Below, piece after piece: positions 23,855-39,817 of a stretch of DNA of 64,000 nt; position 1 is the first letter of the stretch; the number at the start of each line of letters is the position of its first letter. A program made the translations under genes and the position numbers. The notes under the pieces are model-generated. The model did no database searches. It worked only from the letters and a program-made list of their open reading frames with translations, and had not been told where the DNA came from. The stretch comes from a virus. The DNA is taken from positions 1 to 64,000 of the IMG/VR virus record IMGVR_UViG_3300027996_000014. One strand, given 5' to 3'.

Positions 23855-23931
23855 ATGATTCTAGTATAAAGTTAAATAAAAGTTAAATAAAGTTAGGATA
23901 TCAATTTATTATAACAGTAGTAAATGCTCTA

Positions 23932-24018
23932 TTACGGTTTAAACCGTAACGCTGTTATGGGTACAGCCGTAACGTTGTTATGGTTCTAGCCGTAATAGTG
24001 GTCAGGCTAAAGCCGTAA
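23932..24018. repeat. four tandem 23-bp-period imperfect palindromes TTAYGG-N6-CCGTAA (iteron/operator-like)
   Basis: CCGTAA at 23944, 23967, 23990 and 24013; left arms TTACGG, TTATGG, TTATGG, GTCAGG. Confidence 0.9.
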
Positions 24019-24329
24019 TAGGAATGGACGTTATTTATTAGGAGTCAGTTAGTTACGTGTTTGAATATCACTCCGAATTCCCCCTATAAGATAAACTTTA
24101 TAGTTTCTAACGAATATCATCATATTTTAAAATAACTTTTTTATTATTTTTTTAAAACACTCAACTAACCGTGTGAACTTAAAAAAATTATAGACCCCCC
24201 CCTTACCTTTTATTATTTAAAAATACTTAGCGAGTATTTAAGCTGAGACCACCTATAATTTAACCCCTACTAAAAATGGGCAAGGGGAAAGTAGTCCCCC
24301 GTAAAAAATAACCCTTAAAAACTTAGGAC

Positions 24330-24638
24330 ATGAAAAATTTAAAATTAGACAGGTTAGCAAATCTGGTACAGACTTACGGAGCTAAGTTGTACAAGCAAGG
24401 AGAATCATTGGGTACCGTTGTCGTAGGACAAGAAGGCGTTACCATTGACGGAGAAGCATTAGTAATACCTAACGGTGAAGAAGGTACAATGTATATACCA
24501 TTCAGACGAGGTATAGTAGGTGAAGAAGGTAAGACGTACGAACTTCACGTATTCACAGCAGAACGTGATGCCAATGGTACGTACAACGGTGAAGCATGGT
24601 CAGTAACCAAAGGTCACGAGAAGGTATTTGCGTCATAA
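24330..24638 (+). CDS. first early gene, hypothetical
   Basis: 102 aa, less AT-rich than its flanks, followed by a terminator. Confidence 0.7.
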   Translation: MKNLKLDRLANLVQTYGAKLYKQGESLGTVVVGQEGVTIDGEALVIPNGEEGTMYIPFRRGIVGEEGKTYELHVFTAERDANGTYNGEAWSVTKGHEKVFAS

Positions 24639-25268: not shown

Positions 25269-25391
25269 ATGATAGTAGTAAAAACAGGAAAAGAGCTTGA
25301 TAAACTCTGGAACGAATTAATGCAAAAATCAAGGTGCAACCTTGTAGAGAAGATATTGATATATACTCACGAGGTATATATTATAGAGTAA
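25269..25391 (+). CDS. small hypothetical protein (40 aa)
   Basis: Manual translation MIVVKTGKELDKLWNELMQK...; A-rich leader. Confidence 0.4.
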   Translation: MIVVKTGKELDKLWNELMQKSRCNLVEKILIYTHEVYIIE

Positions 25392-26158
25392 TAGGTACTG
25401 CAGTACTGATAAGTGAGACTAGCGACAGCCCTTAGCCCTTGTTACAACAAGGTGGTCTAAGACGGAATATGAAGAAGTTTTATTTTACTTGTACTTATTA
25501 AAAACATTACCTTCTGAAGAGTTACCTCAAGCACATAGAAGATGTAAAACTGCGCAGGATGAACCTGCTGAGTTAGCTCACTCTTAGAGGTGGGCAGGTA
25601 ATAATATTGGTCAAACCTATGACCATGTGACTATAACCGTATCCTGTGAAATTCAGTATAAATATAGAAAACCGACTTTAATCACAAAAGAAAGGTAAGG
25701 GAAAGTGTGACCTCTGTTAGATACAAGTTAAGATGCATATAACCTTATCCAGTGTACCCTTGAAATGCCATTTGAGAGGGAATCGTAAGCGTTAACTATA
25801 ACGTGCTTTAAGCAATATAATAGTACACTGAGGAGTTGGCGGCAAGAGATAAATCGGCTCATGGTCCAGTTGCCGAGTGCCTAATAAGAGAGTCTGGAGT
25901 ACCAGTAGAAATAAGCACTTATTTATCTCGTGACCATTGAAAGATGGTACTAATACATAATAAAGCTAACCTCTTGACAATGTTAGGACTTGTAAAGTCA
26001 AGTATAAAAGCATACTAACAAGGTATGGTGGTGTATATAACACGTAATAAACTCCTACTAAGATGAAAGCACCTTGTTTATTTATTAATAAATTACTTTA
26101 TATAATAATGTGGTTTCACCCTATTGGCTTAGCTCTGTGTAAATCCCACATTTATTAT
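25389..26158 (+). ncRNA. candidate large structured ncRNA or cluster of structured RNAs
   Basis: No ORF of 60 aa or more, raised GC, series of nested long-range helices and T-loop-like TGAAA hairpins; strand inferred from flanking genes. Confidence 0.55.
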
Positions 26159-30663: not shown

Positions 30664-30756
30664 ATGACTGAATTATTCTACTGGATTTGTAGTATAGGAT
30701 TTATGACAACAGTTATAGTTATAGTATTTAACGATAACATATTTAAAGATGATTAA
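30664..30756 (+). CDS. cassette mini-gene, single TM (30 aa)
   Basis: Manual translation MTELFYWICSIGFMTTVIVIVFNDNIFKDD. Confidence 0.5.
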   Translation: MTELFYWICSIGFMTTVIVIVFNDNIFKDD

Positions 30757-30931
30757 TAGTACTAAAGAATGGGATTTTATGGATGATAAAGAAAAAAAGA
30801 GGAGTATGTTTGACGATATAGAAGAAGGTAAAAACCGATTCACATTAGATGACCCTATGGGTAAACTAGTTAAAGAAGCTTTTGATATTATAAAAGTTGT
30901 TAAGAAATTAAACAAAAATAAAGATGAGTAA
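30749..30931 (+). CDS. cassette mini-gene
   Basis: Ends LNKNKDE within a repeat B variant. Confidence 0.6.
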   Translation: MINSTKEWDFMDDKEKKRSMFDDIEEGKNRFTLDDPMGKLVKEAFDIIKVVKKLNKNKDE

Positions 30932-32700: not shown

Positions 32701-34560
32701 ATGGATAGAGTAGTATATGATTTGGAACAATTTCCAAATTTTCATTCAGGTGTTTTTTATGACATAGACCTAAAAACTAAAAAAGTATTTGCACTTCATC
32801 AAGAAAGAGATGAACGAATAGAATATTTTAATTATTTAATAGAGGCAAGTAAAACCATTGGAATGATAGGATTTAATAATCTTGATTATGACTATCCAAT
32901 GCTTCATTATATCCTCACTAACACAAAGAAATTATTATCTATTCCAATTGAAGAATGTCTTACTTTAATGTATGCAAAAAGTCAATGTATAATAGATTCA
33001 GAATATCCTGCAATATCACATTGGAATGTACGTATTAAACAATTAGATTTATTTAGAATACATCATTTTAATAATGTTGCAAGATATACATCATTAAAAC
33101 ATCTTCAAATGGCTATGCATTGGCATAATTTACAAGAAATGCCTTTTCATTATACTCATATGGTAACTAAAAAAGAAATTTCTGAAGTATTAGAATATAA
33201 TGATAATGATGTAATGAGTACTTATCAGTTTTATCTTGAATCTTCTAAAGAAATACAATTTAGGAAAAGAATTAGTAAACAATACAATATTAATTGTATG
33301 AATTATCCTGATGTAAAAATTGGAGAAGAGATATTAATTATTGAAAATGCTAAAGCATTAAATATTCCAATAAAAGAATTTAGAAAATTACGTACAGAAA
33401 GAGATTTTATTAAATTAAAAGAATGCGTATTACCATCTATAAAATTTAAATCTAAAGAATTTAATAAAGCGTTAGATTATTTTAAATCTAAGACTGTTCA
33501 TGCGATGAATACTAAAGGTGTATTAGATCATACTATTATTTATGGTGGTGTAAAATATGACTTTGGAGGAGGAGGTATTCACGGAACATGTGGTTCTGGA
33601 GTATTTAGAACTGATGATGAAGGAGAATTAATCCTTGTTGATGTAAGTTCATACTATCCTAATTTAGCAATTAAAAATAAATTTTACCCTAAGCATCTTT
33701 CAGTGAAGTTTTGTGAAGTTGGTGATAATCTTTATCAACAAAGAATGAAAGCTAAAGAAGAAGGTGATAAACAAATGGTAGATGCTATTAAATTAGCATT
33801 AAATGGTGCATTATTTGGAAAAAGTAATGATGAATATAGCCCTATGTATGATACTAAATTTATGTTTGATATTACTATTAATGGACAATTGTTATTATGC
33901 ATGTTAGCAGAAAGAATTACAGATGCTGGCATTAAAATAATACAAATTAATACTGATGGTATATTAGTAAAAGTTAGTAAAACTATGCAAACAAAACTAA
34001 AAGAAATGTGTAAAAAATGGGAAAACTTAACAAAATTGAAATTAGATTATGATTTATTTAAAGTAATCATTCAACGTGATGTTAATAATTATTCAGGCAC
34101 ATTTACTGATAATACAACTAAAGAAAAAGGAGCATTTGCTATTGATAAACCTTGGAATAAAAATCATTCAATGAAGGTAGTATCTATAGCTGTTGCAAAA
34201 TATTTTGTAAATGGAATACCTGTAGAAGATACTATTAAAAATCATAATGAAATATTTGATTTTTGTATTAGTCAAAAAGTAGGTAAACAATATACAGTAG
34301 AACATCATTATCTTAAAGATAACAATTTAATAAAAGAAAAAGTTCAACAATTGAATAGATTTTTTATCACCAATACTGGTGGAGCACTTGTTAAAGTTAA
34401 AGAAGATAGTTCAGTAAGTAGATTAACAGCAGGTCACAGTATTGGTCTGTTTAACAAATTTTATAAATCTGACAATTACGATTTAAAGTATAATTATTAT
34501 ATAGCTGAAGCTAATAAATTAATTAATGCTGTCGATAATGGTCAAATATCAATGTTTTAA
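32701..34560 (+). CDS. polB: DNA polymerase family B
   Basis: Exo motifs YDLE and GFNNLDYD; polymerase motifs DVSSYYPN, KLALNGALFGK, QINTDGI. Confidence 0.92.
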   Translation: MDRVVYDLEQFPNFHSGVFYDIDLKTKKVFALHQERDERIEYFNYLIEASKTIGMIGFNNLDYDYPMLHYILTNTKKLLSIPIEECLTLMYAKSQCIIDSEYPAISHWNVRIKQLDLFRIHHFNNVARYTSLKHLQMAMHWHNLQEMPFHYTHMVTKKEISEVLEYNDNDVMSTYQFYLESSKEIQFRKRISKQYNINCMNYPDVKIGEEILIIENAKALNIPIKEFRKLRTERDFIKLKECVLPSIKFKSKEFNKALDYFKSKTVHAMNTKGVLDHTIIYGGVKYDFGGGGIHGTCGSGVFRTDDEGELILVDVSSYYPNLAIKNKFYPKHLSVKFCEVGDNLYQQRMKAKEEGDKQMVDAIKLALNGALFGKSNDEYSPMYDTKFMFDITINGQLLLCMLAERITDAGIKIIQINTDGILVKVSKTMQTKLKEMCKKWENLTKLKLDYDLFKVIIQRDVNNYSGTFTDNTTKEKGAFAIDKPWNKNHSMKVVSIAVAKYFVNGIPVEDTIKNHNEIFDFCISQKVGKQYTVEHHYLKDNNLIKEKVQQLNRFFITNTGGALVKVKEDSSVSRLTAGHSIGLFNKFYKSDNYDLKYNYYIAEANKLINAVDNGQISMF

Positions 34561-34570
34561 TAATAATAAT

Positions 34571-34837
34571 ATGAAGTTTAAACCATTAGCAACAAGAGTA
34601 ATAGTATTAGTTAATCCTGATGAGGTAGAACTAGTAAAAGGAGTTATGTCATTTATACCTGAAAAAGTATTAAGAGGTGTAGTACAAGCAGTTGGACCAG
34701 GTACTAAAAAAGAACCAATGGAAATTAAAATTGGAGATGAAATATCTTATGGTAAAAATTCAGGAACAGAAGTTGAAATTGAAGGTGGAAAATACCTAAT
34801 AATGAGACAATCTGCAATTGATGGAATTATTCGATGA
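34571..34837 (+). CDS. groES: GroES-like co-chaperonin
   Basis: MKFKPLATRV...GVVQAVGPG...IKIGD...SGTEVEIEGGKYLIMRQSAI; start reassigned to 34571. Confidence 0.88.
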   Translation: MKFKPLATRVIVLVNPDEVELVKGVMSFIPEKVLRGVVQAVGPGTKKEPMEIKIGDEISYGKNSGTEVEIEGGKYLIMRQSAIDGIIR

Positions 34838-35289: not shown

Positions 35290-36363
35290 ATGAGTTATTC
35301 AGAGAGAATTTATAAAAAAGATTCTAAAAATAGAGTACGTTTATTACACGTATATGTTGAAGGGGCTGATCTAATTTCATTATCAGGTTTAATTGATGGA
35401 AAATTAAAAGAAGATAGAAGTACATGTATTTCTAAAAATATTGGAAAATCTAATGAAACTAGTCCTAATACACAAGCTGAATTTGAAGCAAGAGCAAAAA
35501 TTCAATCTAAAATGTCTGAAGGATATTTTAAAACAATTAAAGAAGCTGAGAATAATGAGGTGATTCTACCTATGTTGGCAAAAGACTATAATAAAGAAAA
35601 AAAGAAAGTAATCTTTCCTTGTTTTATACAACCTAAATTAGATGGACAACGTGCATTAGGAAACAAAATGGTACCAATGATTTCTCGTAAAGGAAAAATA
35701 ATTGATACTATGAGTCATATTCAAAAAGAATTAGATATTCTTGATAAAGAAAATGAAGTTTATCTTGATGGAGAATTATATGCTCATGGAAAAACATTTC
35801 AAGAAAATATGAGACTTATTAAAAAATATCGTCCAAGAGAATCTGAAACAGTTAAATATCATGTATATGATTTAATTATGGATGCTCCATTTGAAATAAG
35901 ATATGCAGAATTAAAAGCATTAGTAGTAAGTATGACTGAAATTAAAATAGTTCCTACTTATAAAATAGAAAATGAAGAACAATTAAAAAAATTTCATCTA
36001 CAGTTTATAGCTAGTGGTTATGAAGGAACAATTATAAGACACAGTAACGCAGGATACAGTATTAATAAAAGAGATAGTCAATTATTAAAGTATAAAGATT
36101 TTATTGATGAAGCGTATGAAGTTATAGATATCTTGCCTAGTGATAAGAATCCAGATCAAGGTGTTGTACGCTGTACTATTGGTGGTGGATATGCAAATGT
36201 GACTTTTGGTTGTGGAATGAAGTTTTCTCATAAAGAACGTGAAGAAATGTTAATTAATAAATCTGATTACATAGGTAAAATAGCAGAAATACGTTTCTTT
36301 GAATATACTGATGATGGTATACCAAGATTTCCTGTATGTCACGGATTTAGAAACGATAAATAA
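35290..36363 (+). CDS. lig: ATP-dependent DNA ligase
   Basis: PKLDG, LDGELY, EGTIIR, LLKYK and PRFP motifs. Confidence 0.92.
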   Translation: MSYSERIYKKDSKNRVRLLHVYVEGADLISLSGLIDGKLKEDRSTCISKNIGKSNETSPNTQAEFEARAKIQSKMSEGYFKTIKEAENNEVILPMLAKDYNKEKKKVIFPCFIQPKLDGQRALGNKMVPMISRKGKIIDTMSHIQKELDILDKENEVYLDGELYAHGKTFQENMRLIKKYRPRESETVKYHVYDLIMDAPFEIRYAELKALVVSMTEIKIVPTYKIENEEQLKKFHLQFIASGYEGTIIRHSNAGYSINKRDSQLLKYKDFIDEAYEVIDILPSDKNPDQGVVRCTIGGGYANVTFGCGMKFSHKEREEMLINKSDYIGKIAEIRFFEYTDDGIPRFPVCHGFRNDK

Positions 36364-36427
36364 TTAAAAATTAGAAATAATGGCCAAACCTACAGCCAGA
36401 AAAGTAGGTAACAATTAAACTATTATT

Positions 36428-36550
36428 ATGTCAGAAAAAGACAACAAAAACAACAAAGAAGAAGAGCCTATGGGTACAGTACAAATGTTATTAGGTATTG
36501 CATCATTTGTAGCAGCAATCTATGTATTGTATGTAGTATTTGCAGGGTAG
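36428..36550 (+). CDS. small single-TM protein (40 aa)
   Basis: Manual translation MSEKDNKNNKEEEPMGTVQMLLGIASFVAAIYVLYVVFAG. Confidence 0.5.
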   Translation: MSEKDNKNNKEEEPMGTVQMLLGIASFVAAIYVLYVVFAG

Positions 36551-36558
36551 TATTATTA

Positions 36559-36767
36559 AATTCTTAATACAAAGTAACGCCAGTGATTATGGTTCTGGAT
36601 CCAGGTCTGCAATGCGAACAGTAAAGAGTAAACCCTGGGAGGAGTAGCTATGAAGACATTAAATAAAGTGAGAGCTTTTGCTGAAAAGTGGTCAATATGA
36701 ACATGAAACGGAGCAATCCCTGACATGAGAAGGCGGTCCATAAAGTTAGGTTACTATATTAAGAATT
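36559..36767 (+). ncRNA. candidate structured ncRNA 1 (~210 nt)
   Basis: 11-bp closing stem AATTCTTAATA/TATTAAGAATT plus GTAAC/GTTAC; GC-richer interior with hairpins. Confidence 0.5.
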
Positions 36768-36772
36768 AAATT

Positions 36773-36971
36773 TTGAAGTCTTAGTATGTGGTAGGGCAAT
36801 GTTACTTGTTAGCAACCCACCAGTCACAATCATACGGGAAAACGTACTTAGATTTTGCTGTTAATAGGCAAGACATGGGGCTTGGTACGAAGTCTTAAAC
36901 TAATCAAGGAAGCAAGGAGTACCTTGGAATAGGGAAACGGAGGTAGATGCTCTGGTTTAGGATTACTTCAA
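36773..36971 (+). ncRNA. candidate structured ncRNA 2 (~200 nt, raiA-motif-like)
   Basis: Closing stem TTGAAGT/ACTTCAA; internal helices TGTGG/TCACA, TACG-GGAAAA-CGTA, GGCTT/AAGTC, CAAGG/CCTTG. Confidence 0.5.
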
Positions 36972-37003
36972 TTTTTTATTAACAATCTAAAACTAAACAA
37001 AAG

Positions 37004-37249
37004 ATGAGTAAATATCAAACTGAAAAACGTAAAAATAAAGAACTTCGTATAATAATATTATCTAAAGAAGAAGCAATGAAATTACAAATTAAAGAGTATA
37101 CTATTATTAAAAGAAAGTTAGATATGATAATTCATTGGTTAGGGAATCATACAGGTATTGCACCTGCTTCTTTAGAAAGTCACATGAAAAATATAGATAG
37201 AGTATTAATTAAAACATTTAAAAATGAGAAGTCTAATATTATTAATTAG
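37004..37249 (+). CDS. hypothetical protein
   Basis: 81 aa ORF. Confidence 0.55.
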   Translation: MSKYQTEKRKNKELRIIILSKEEAMKLQIKEYTIIKRKLDMIIHWLGNHTGIAPASLESHMKNIDRVLIKTFKNEKSNIIN

Positions 37250-37661
37250 AGGTTTAGCAGTTCGTACATCATTTAATGATTGGGACTGGGCCACATTACA
37301 ACTTATTCAAATTAATAAAACAAGTGAACCATTTAATAAATGGGTGCTTATGGAAATTACATTTGAAGGAGAAATAAATAAAGGAATTCCTGCTGATATA
37401 GAAGTTACTCATGAAGGAGAAGAATTAATATTAACGTGTTATGAAAAAGAAGTATTTGGTGAAATTAAACTAAAAGCTACTTATGATGAAGAAATGTTTC
37501 ATGAAGCTCATTCACCTAAATATATTCCTACATATGAAATTTTAGAAATAACTATATGTGGTGAAAATGTAAAAAAACTTAATTTATCAAAAGAATTAAA
37601 AACTAATATTCAATCAGTAGCAGAATCTTATAGAGATAAAATGATTGAAGAACTTATATAA
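37224..37661 (+). CDS. hypothetical protein
   Basis: 145 aa ORF. Confidence 0.55.
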   Translation: MRSLILLIRGLAVRTSFNDWDWATLQLIQINKTSEPFNKWVLMEITFEGEINKGIPADIEVTHEGEELILTCYEKEVFGEIKLKATYDEEMFHEAHSPKYIPTYEILEITICGENVKKLNLSKELKTNIQSVAESYRDKMIEELI

Positions 37662-37664
37662 ATT

Positions 37665-38030
37665 ATGAAATGGACTAATAAAGATATGCTTGAATTTGCT
37701 AGAGTAGCAAGTGAAGGTGCTTATGGAAATTACAGAGGTTGTAAAACTCTTATAAGTAAATTAAATAAATATAAAGAATTAAATGAAATGAGTAGATATG
37801 TAAAAGAATTGGAAGATGGTAATTATATAAGTTATGGTTTTGACAATGCATTGGGTTATTTTTTTGATTTATGTACAGCTTCTGATGAAGATGGTGATAG
37901 TGAACTTTTAATAGAAGAATCTAGCATATTATCTGGAATGAATAATGGCAAAATGATAGGATTAATGAGTATCTTTAAGCTACCTGAATCACACATTGAA
38001 ATGGTAGCTATGGATGTTCCAATAGTATAA
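37665..38030 (+). CDS. hypothetical protein
   Basis: 121 aa ORF. Confidence 0.55.
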   Translation: MKWTNKDMLEFARVASEGAYGNYRGCKTLISKLNKYKELNEMSRYVKELEDGNYISYGFDNALGYFFDLCTASDEDGDSELLIEESSILSGMNNGKMIGLMSIFKLPESHIEMVAMDVPIV

Positions 38031-38707: not shown

Positions 38708-39817
38708 ATGGATAAGAGAAAGAAAATACAAACACTTGGAACAAAAAGTATTATTGATAATAAATTTAAAGGTATATTATTTGTTGCACCAAGAGTTGGA
38801 AAGTGTAAAATTGTAATTGATGCTCTTAATACTAAATCAATGGTTTCAAGAGATATTTCAATATTAGTGCTAGCACCAAAAAAAGAAATATTTAAAGGTT
38901 GGAAAACTGATATTAAGAAATGGAATTTACATGATGGATTTGAAATTGAATACGTTTGGAGCAATAGTTTAAAAAAGATTGATAAAAAATATGATCTAAT
39001 AATAGCTGATGAAATTCACGAATATAATTTAAAAGTACTTGAATTACTTGCTTTACATAAAGCAAAAGGTTCACGTATACTTGGACTTACTGGTACGTTA
39101 GATAGTGATTCAAAATTCCTAATACAACATGTTGTAGGTATTTCACCAATTTATACGTATACAGTTGATGAAGCAATTACAGATAAAATTGTTGCTGATT
39201 ACCGTATTTATTGTGTCGAATGTGATCTTGACGATAAAGATAAATATGTTGAAGCTGGAAGTGAAGAAAAACCTTTTATGCAAACAGAAGCTGAAGCTTA
39301 TAAATATTGGAATAATAAATATAACACTGCTGTATCTAATATGAGGTATTCTCAAATGAGATTTCCTATGATGCGTAGAAAAAATATTATTTATAATTCA
39401 AAAACTAAAATTAATCTTACTAAAAAAATAGTAGCTAATATTGATAGATGTTTAATATTTACAGGTTTTCAAAAAATAGCTGATTCTATTGGCGATGCAT
39501 CATTTCATTCAAAGTCTAGTAAAGATACTCTTGAACAATTAAAATTAGGAGCTATAAACAAGTGTTCTGTGGTATCAATGGTATCAATGGGAGTAACTAT
39601 ACCAAATTTAAAAGTAACTGTCTTTAATCAACTAAAAAGTGGTGAAAATACAGCAGTTCAACAAGCAATGAGAGCTATGAACTTAGATGGTGATAAAATA
39701 GCTACAATAATCATTGTGTATTTAAAAAATACTCGTGATGAAATATGGATGAAATCTGCACTTAAAGGATTTAATTCTAATAAAATTACATTTTGTAAAT
39801 TTAAAGATTTGCCTTAA
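38708..39817 (+). CDS. superfamily 2 helicase
   Basis: APRVGK, IIADEIH, GLTGT, GVTIP and QQAMRAM motifs. Confidence 0.85.
   Translation: MDKRKKIQTLGTKSIIDNKFKGILFVAPRVGKCKIVIDALNTKSMVSRDISILVLAPKKEIFKGWKTDIKKWNLHDGFEIEYVWSNSLKKIDKKYDLIIADEIHEYNLKVLELLALHKAKGSRILGLTGTLDSDSKFLIQHVVGISPIYTYTVDEAITDKIVADYRIYCVECDLDDKDKYVEAGSEEKPFMQTEAEAYKYWNNKYNTAVSNMRYSQMRFPMMRRKNIIYNSKTKINLTKKIVANIDRCLIFTGFQKIADSIGDASFHSKSSKDTLEQLKLGAINKCSVVSMVSMGVTIPNLKVTVFNQLKSGENTAVQQAMRAMNLDGDKIATIIIVYLKNTRDEIWMKSALKGFNSNKITFCKFKDLP

Follow-up and report, generated by a model that had tools for sequence, protein, structure and literature searches.

Positions 36773-36971 of a marine phage sequence carry, on the + strand, a genuine structured RNA of about 199 nt, from a family outside Rfam. 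Its predicted fold is a four-way junction, in which P1, a closing stem of 7 bp, meets three arms. P1, arm C and a 25-nt tail are nearly invariant; of arms A and B (36782-36890) there are two alleles or more, with 57-71% identity where the arms could be compared, and their pairs are kept by compensation. The RNA behaves as a horizontal cassette, the same A/B allele being present in close strains and in a distant phage. Taken as a whole, the reading of this locus as a structured, exchanged phage RNA that accumulates as a discrete small RNA has, in our estimate, a probability of about 0.55.

The window, meaning the whole stretch of DNA that was analysed, covers the opening 64 kb of an IMG/VR virus record with a length of 88,208 bp and 28.8% GC. 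The capsid, portal and terminase of the record match phage families, and near-identical DNA is found in metagenome runs from seawater, marine and sediment samples. No RNA run with the stretch appears among the 21 runs listed, which speaks neither for nor against expression. With about 29% identity to its counterparts in the crAss-like phages of Bacteroides, Flavobacterium and Cellulophaga, the capsid protein is crAss-like, in agreement with the Bacteroidota-type phage that had been guessed from the letters alone. The host is probably a marine member of the Flavobacteriia. Positions 1-125 of the window recur at 88084-88208, the end of the record, with 97.6% identity. By this recurrence the genome may be complete and terminally repeated, although IMG/VR has the record as linear and 63% complete.

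The candidate RNA, which we call module 2, sits inside the rightward replication block of the phage, in the following order.

32701-34560: PolB, in the rightward replication block
34526-34837: GroES-like gene, in the same block
35290-36363, + strand: ATP-dependent DNA ligase, the upstream anchor (PHROG 114 at 1.6e-74; Pfam DNA_ligase_A_M)
36428-36550: 40-aa membrane-type ORF, between the ligase and the ORF-free gap
36551-37003: ORF-free gap, GC 37-39% against about 25% around it
36559-36767, + strand: module 1, a neighbouring stem-closed candidate RNA of about 209 nt with a perfect 11-bp terminal helix
36773-36971, + strand: module 2
37004-37249, + strand: 81-aa ORF (ORF81) directly downstream of the RNA, without family match
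after the 81-aa ORF and before the helicase: 145-aa ORF (ORF145), in the rightward block
at 38708: helicase, in the rightward block

The ORF-free gap contains two stem-closed units, separated by 5 nt, of which module 1 is the upstream one. The region is unlikely to be a decayed gene, as its six frames show only short stop-to-stop stretches. We found neither a Bacteroidota-type -7 box near this island nor a consensus promoter or classic terminator at its ends. The fold z-score of module 1 is -1.66, and that of the two modules folded together is -0.35. Module 1 is covered by the contigs X3 and X8 with few differences, and so gives no covariation information. It has a 16-codon ORF (36650-36700) behind a GGAGG word; this word is probably structural, since ORF81, the one gene checked, is not preceded by a Shine-Dalgarno sequence. 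The two modules were compared with each other and with the remaining GC-rich gaps, and no paralogy came to light. Further GC-raised stretches without ORFs of at least 80 aa lie at 25282-26016 and 23880-24330; neither holds a copy of module 2 by the covariance model R1, described below.

Contigs from four runs were compared with the window, and a variant allele of module 2 occurs in two of them, from close strains, X2 (6936 nt) and X3 (307 nt), which are near-identical to the window except at 36782-36890, where the differences are dense. The same variant is borne by L027, a TARA scaffold from the metagenome scan that begins inside module 2. The fold was derived with RNAalifold and manual refinement from a two-sequence alignment of the window with L027, so that two alleles make up the structural evidence; in the 5' half of arm A the listed X2/X3 differences are the sole source for the variant, with pairs assigned by hand. 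The elements of the modelled four-way junction, with their identity between the window and L027 where compared, are these.

36773-36779, + strand: 5' strand of P1 (TTGAAGT), paired with 36965-36971; no variation seen
36784-36835, + strand: arm A, with helices 36784-88/36831-35, 36789-92/36819-22 and 36794-96/36816-18 and a hairpin 36800-04/36810-14; 3' part 71% identical
36843-36889, + strand: arm B, with outer helices 36843-47/36885-89 and 36849-51/36882-84 and an inner hairpin 36853-59/36867-73; 57% identical
36891-36964, + strand: arm C, the conserved platform, with a 12-bp basal helix 36891-902/36953-64 and an apical hairpin 36920-25/36940-45; 92% identical
36965-36971, + strand: 3' strand of P1 (ACTTCAA); 100% identical
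36972-36996, + strand: conserved 3' tail, a T6 run followed by ATTAACAATCTAAAACTAA; 100% identical over these 25 nt
36822-36882, + strand: possible alternative or pseudoknot pairing, 36822-25/36879-82 and 36830-33/36875-78

Every one of the 60 pairs of the model is standard in the window, and so are all 36 that can be tested in L027. The alignment of the two holds six double-sided and four one-sided pair changes, against no double change and 33-44% pairing in six slid controls. Stems with at least three double changes arose in 0.5% of column shuffles (n=200); the real alignment has two such stems, each in arm B. Compensation keeps the helices of arms A and B: double changes number 10 in total (6 in arm B, 4 in arm A), and none of the pairs tested is broken. 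In arm B all 15 pairs survive in L027 despite the low identity and a 10-nt insertion, with six double-sided and three one-sided changes. The double changes of arm A, seen in X2/X3 and partly in L027, are U-A to C-G at 36785/36834, G-C to C-G at 36788/36831, G-C to A-U at 36790/36821 and G-C to U-G at 36791/36820; they are accompanied by a one-sided U-A to U-G at 36789/36822. The remaining listed changes are unpaired, at 36798, 36805, 36808 and 36825 in arm A and at 36782 in the linker between P1 and arm A.

The other half of the molecule hardly varies. Arm C shows a single one-sided change (U-G to U-A at 36895/36960), positions 36773-36781 are unchanged in X2/X3 among the differences listed, and the two alleles display no covariation in P1 or arm C. 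The tail is identical in L027 at 25 of 25 positions, and beyond it the phages diverge into different ORFs; it is possibly the 3' end or terminator tail of the RNA, or else a recombination joint or leader. P1 and arm C could stack coaxially in the model, because the 3' strand of arm C continues directly into that of P1. With 9 of the 60 pairs being G-U, which would become A-C on the opposite strand, the RNA strand is the + strand, and the antisense strand is ruled out as the RNA.

The scaffold L027 comes from a different phage, sharing with the window only the ligase (54% identical in amino acids, 66% in nucleotides) and the helicase (31% in amino acids). Its copy of the RNA lies about 9 kb before the ligase, and that of the window after the ligase. 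In the syntenic relatives L006 and L007, the gap from ligase to ORF145 is occupied by small ORFs. Contig X8 fuses 36363 directly to 37833, skipping the region; contig X5 matches only from 36984 onward, with unrelated DNA before; and other relatives diverge at 36361/36366 and at 36984. The slot behind the ligase stop codon is highly variable among relatives, which carry ORFs, junctions or unrelated DNA there, and the RNA is a cassette exchanged horizontally between phages. The L007 slot, equivalent to 36364-37832, has small membrane and zinc-ribbon ORFs. Recombination has occurred inside the RNA cassette as well, and the divergent block of module 2 is flanked by a direct repeat of 9 nt, GAAGTCTTA, with copies at 36775-83 and 36889-97. 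The last 50 bases of L027 (11487-11536) are 94% identical to a junction in the mini-gene array of the window, at 30745-30793.

The family is small in the material searched. A blastn search of 50,697 phage records and an nhmmer search of 25 ligase-relative loci returned no homologue. The covariance model R1, built from the window and L027, found on the window and 26 loci only these two source sequences; it had no match in 24 complete ligase-relative records or in 3 + 151 bacterial genomes, the 151 being Bacteroidia. Pattern scans of viral contigs gave seven hits, all judged to be chance: three have no R1 match, three of the other four match the short hairpin alone, L153 none, and two (L151 and L154) look protein-coding by eye.

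What had drawn attention to this stretch was a set of short landmarks like those of the raiA motif RNA of Bacillota and Actinomycetota. Most of them are in place: TTGAAGT (36773-36779) and ACTTCAA (36965-36971) of the closing stem, TGTGGT (36787-36792), CCAGTCACA (36820-36828), CATGG (36874-36878) and GGCTT-N6-AAGTC (36879-36894). ATCCA, also claimed, has no copy on either strand of 36604-38010, and ATCAT stands at that spot. By themselves these elements lie within chance expectation: perfect 7-bp inverted repeats with a span of 150-250 nt number 1128 in the window, and the fold z-scores of module 2 are unremarkable (-1.16 on the + strand, -0.77 on the - strand). What does exceed chance is a different helix set from the one proposed, backed by the compensatory changes in arms A and B. 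Of the helices proposed at the outset, P1 shows no variation and the GGCTT/AAGTC hairpin keeps only two of its five pairs in the L027 allele; in the refined fold its bases belong to the 3' strand of arm B and the 5' strand of arm C.

The words ascribed to raiA were accurate, since a word scan of genome contigs retrieved true raiA, many matches having an identical 41-nt span, in Clostridia and Negativicutes; all 16 word-scan loci tested scored 155-206 bits with the Rfam raiA model. The same model (RF03072) gave nothing at E<=10 on 226 nt or 1001 nt around module 2 and no first-look candidates in the 88-kb genome, and Rfam 15 run on the whole window gave no raiA at the gathering threshold (101.3 bits). 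We also built a raiA model from 16 members picked by word pattern, with an imperfect RNAalifold structure that differs from that of Rfam. Applied with filters off to 36500-37100, its best score was 1.6 bits, in module 1; within or overlapping module 2 it gave negative local scores only, from -0.9 to -3.1 bits. Local alignment of the candidate to the 16 raiA sequences had a mean score of 20.8, compared with 20.0 +/- 1.4 for dinucleotide shuffles, 76 of 300 of which reached that score, and the long invariant tracts of the 16-member alignment are absent from the candidate.

The word order itself deserves a closer account, as five of the six words do occur in the raiA order, in an RNA that is likewise of about 200 nt, closed by pairing of its 5' and 3' ends and multi-stemmed. 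The words of true raiA sit at positions 13, 31, 49, about 80, about 88 and about 99; the candidate has the first two at 15 and 48, lacks the third, and has the others at 102, 107 and 118. The offset of TGTGGT from the 5' end is thus alike, and the GGCTT-N6-AAGTC spacing is that of 8 of the 16 true raiA. The collinear word chain of the candidate scores 52, which 69 of 1000 shuffles reach, and at least 10 of 2554 other phage windows score 58-64. Averaged over the 16 raiA, the chain stands out more against the shuffles, 4 of 1000 of which reach its score of 42.8.

Architecture separates the two further. The raiA family has about 51 highly conserved nucleotides, helices P1-P6(8) and two pseudoknots, according to PMC10861870 and PMC12968392, and most of the 51 positions given in PMC10861870 are absent from the phage RNA. 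The P1 of raiA, as described in PMC12968392, is made up of P1a, P1b and P1c, all conserved, with bulges of GU and GGU; its 3' tract is conserved too. The P1 of the candidate is a plain 7-bp helix that lacks the P1b/P1c 3' tract and the bulges. The words pair with other partners, too. In the Rfam consensus the raiA UGUGG pairs with the 3'-terminal CCAGG tract (P1b), and the candidate's UGGU pairs with a nearby ACCA, backed by two double changes. RNAalifold on the 16 true raiA pairs UGUGG with the nearby CCAGUCGCAG and not with the 3'-terminal partner of Rfam; this local pairing is the same as that of the phage RNA. A bipartite helix (AGUC/GGCU plus UCAU/AUGG) with a 4-nt one-sided loop is possible and recalls P3a-P3b; it would pair 8/8 in both alleles and competes with covarying pairs of arms A and B. 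The host range is also wrong, raiA being known from Bacillota and Actinomycetota, that is from Gram-positive chromosomes (PMC10861870), and the carrier here being a crAss-like marine phage. A further trait of raiA is its binding by KhpA/KhpB. On covariance models, alignment, word chains and closing-stem architecture, the phage RNA is not a member of the raiA family. A divergent raiA, or a shared raiA core, is hardly credible, and a convergent raiA-like core barely possible. The proposal, either a divergent raiA-like RNA borne by a phage or a new class with the raiA core, therefore holds for a structured RNA outside Rfam 15 and fails for the link to raiA.

Other known classes were considered in turn. 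Rfam 15, at gathering thresholds on the window and at E<=10 on 1001 nt and 226 nt, offers no family for module 2. A retron msr-msd RNA was set aside, there being no RVT_1 at E<=1 in the 88-kb genome, a search that a very divergent reverse transcriptase could escape. A bacterial Y RNA of the YrlA type was rejected, with no TROVE match and no Rfam match, and a tRNA or tRNA-like gene likewise, as ARAGORN finds 0 genes in the window; a 7-bp P1 that runs on into the last arm gives the junction no more than a cloverleaf-like topology.

Two alternative pairings bear on whether the RNA acts in cis. The bipartite helix 36822-25/36879-82 and 36830-33/36875-78 keeps eight of eight pairs in both alleles with three double changes, compared with 0-1 in slid controls. 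Such a helix would compete with part of arm A and, together with arm B, create a pseudoknot. Because stems with at least two double changes arise in 33% of column shuffles, we regard its formation as no more than possible. In the other pairing, the 3' strand of arm C (36953-36964) can pair at 11 of 12 positions with the A-rich leader 36984-36995, both strands being conserved in L027. The 5' strand of arm C at 36891-36903 (AGTCTTAAACTAA) and the leader after the RNA at 36984-36996 (AATCTAAAACTAA) are two letters apart, and the 5' copy of GAAGTCTTA at 36775-83 is a third partial copy of this word. The likeness between arm C, leader and repeat could reflect either alternative pairing or repeated recombination joints. 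Near-matches to the leader word number 28 in the window, where 16 are expected, which makes its likeness to arm C weakly significant.

Such pairings would be at home in a cis-acting leader or switch, with module 2 as the sensor and the arm C 3' strand re-pairing with the leader to control translation of, or read-through into, the next ORF. The full-length RNA forced into the arm C/leader fold is only about 3 kcal/mol worse (-46.6 vs -49.3), the bipartite helix supplies the second, mutually exclusive long-range pairing with double changes that a switch would show, and the RNA directly precedes an ORF in both phages. These ORFs differ between the two phages, however, so that control of this kind would lack gene specificity; in isolation the alternative hairpin is weak (-5.1 vs -18.9 kcal/mol for arm C), the near-matches of the leader word in the window are numerous, and no Rfam riboswitch matches. 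We consider a leader or switch unlikely, while granting it the best standing after the favoured reading. An element acting as DNA, which might be a hotspot of recombination, a joint between cassettes, a signal for replication or packaging, or an insert of the MITE type, would require no functional RNA at all. The place in the replication module, at a variable spot behind the ligase, the 9-nt direct repeat around the divergent block and the terminal inverted repeats would suit it. Yet the G-U pairs and the U-G to U-A change fit an RNA of the + strand and not DNA cruciforms, the structure consists of many local hairpins and not of one long palindrome, and no transposase or reverse transcriptase was found, which together leave a DNA element improbable. 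Chance structure in non-functional spacer DNA is more improbable still: the unremarkable fold z-scores and the tiny family speak for it, but the ten compensatory double changes without a broken pair speak against it, as do an arm C and tail that are 92-100% identical between phages though their ligase genes are 66% identical in DNA.

According to the reading that we favour, a trans-acting structured RNA, module 2 would be co-transcribed with the rightward replication-gene block and would accumulate as a discrete small RNA with a 3' end set by the P1/arm C stack and the U run. Arm C would be the platform for binding, while the variable arms would provide the specificity for action in trans in the course of infection. 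Within that reading, co-transcription, persistence as a discrete RNA, a 3' end set by the stack and U6, and action in trans together have somewhat less than an even chance, the role in trans being conjectural.

Phage T4 makes small stable RNAs of a comparable description: RNAC and RNAD (species 1 and 2) are stem-closed, about 140 nt long, cut from longer transcripts and encoded in the tRNA cluster. They resemble module 2, by description alone, in being phage-encoded and stem-closed; they differ in their place in a tRNA cluster, the present window having no tRNA and its RNA lying in the replication module. For the exchange, PeSL of T4-type phages offer a parallel: these short conserved sequences at cassette borders reportedly let unrelated phages exchange single units. 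In the same way, the 25-nt tail of the phage RNA is letter-identical while the next ORF differs. Here, however, the unit exchanged is an RNA with internal covariation instead of a protein mini-gene, and neither a PeSL-like promoter nor a PeSL-like stem-loop was seen there. It is conceivable, though doubtful, that module 2 represents a new modular class of phage RNA, in which a near-invariant platform (P1, arm C and tail) carries an A/B specificity block, swapped among phages through recombination. Such an RNA might toggle between two mutually exclusive folds, each kept by compensation, and would work as a trans decoy or guide in the conflict of phage and host, or as a new kind of switch.

Structured RNAs of crAss-like phages are essentially undescribed; in the literature on Crassvirales and crAss-like phages we found only the RT-linked ncRNAs of gut phages (PMC9226505). 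The present analysis removes a tempting link to raiA, whose function is a long-standing open question. In its place, module 2 brings compensatory evidence from natural alleles, and the exchange of an RNA, and of a part of an RNA, between distant ocean phages. Two natural variants are at hand for probing, binding and reporter work. Exchange and compensation together point to a selectable function in infection.
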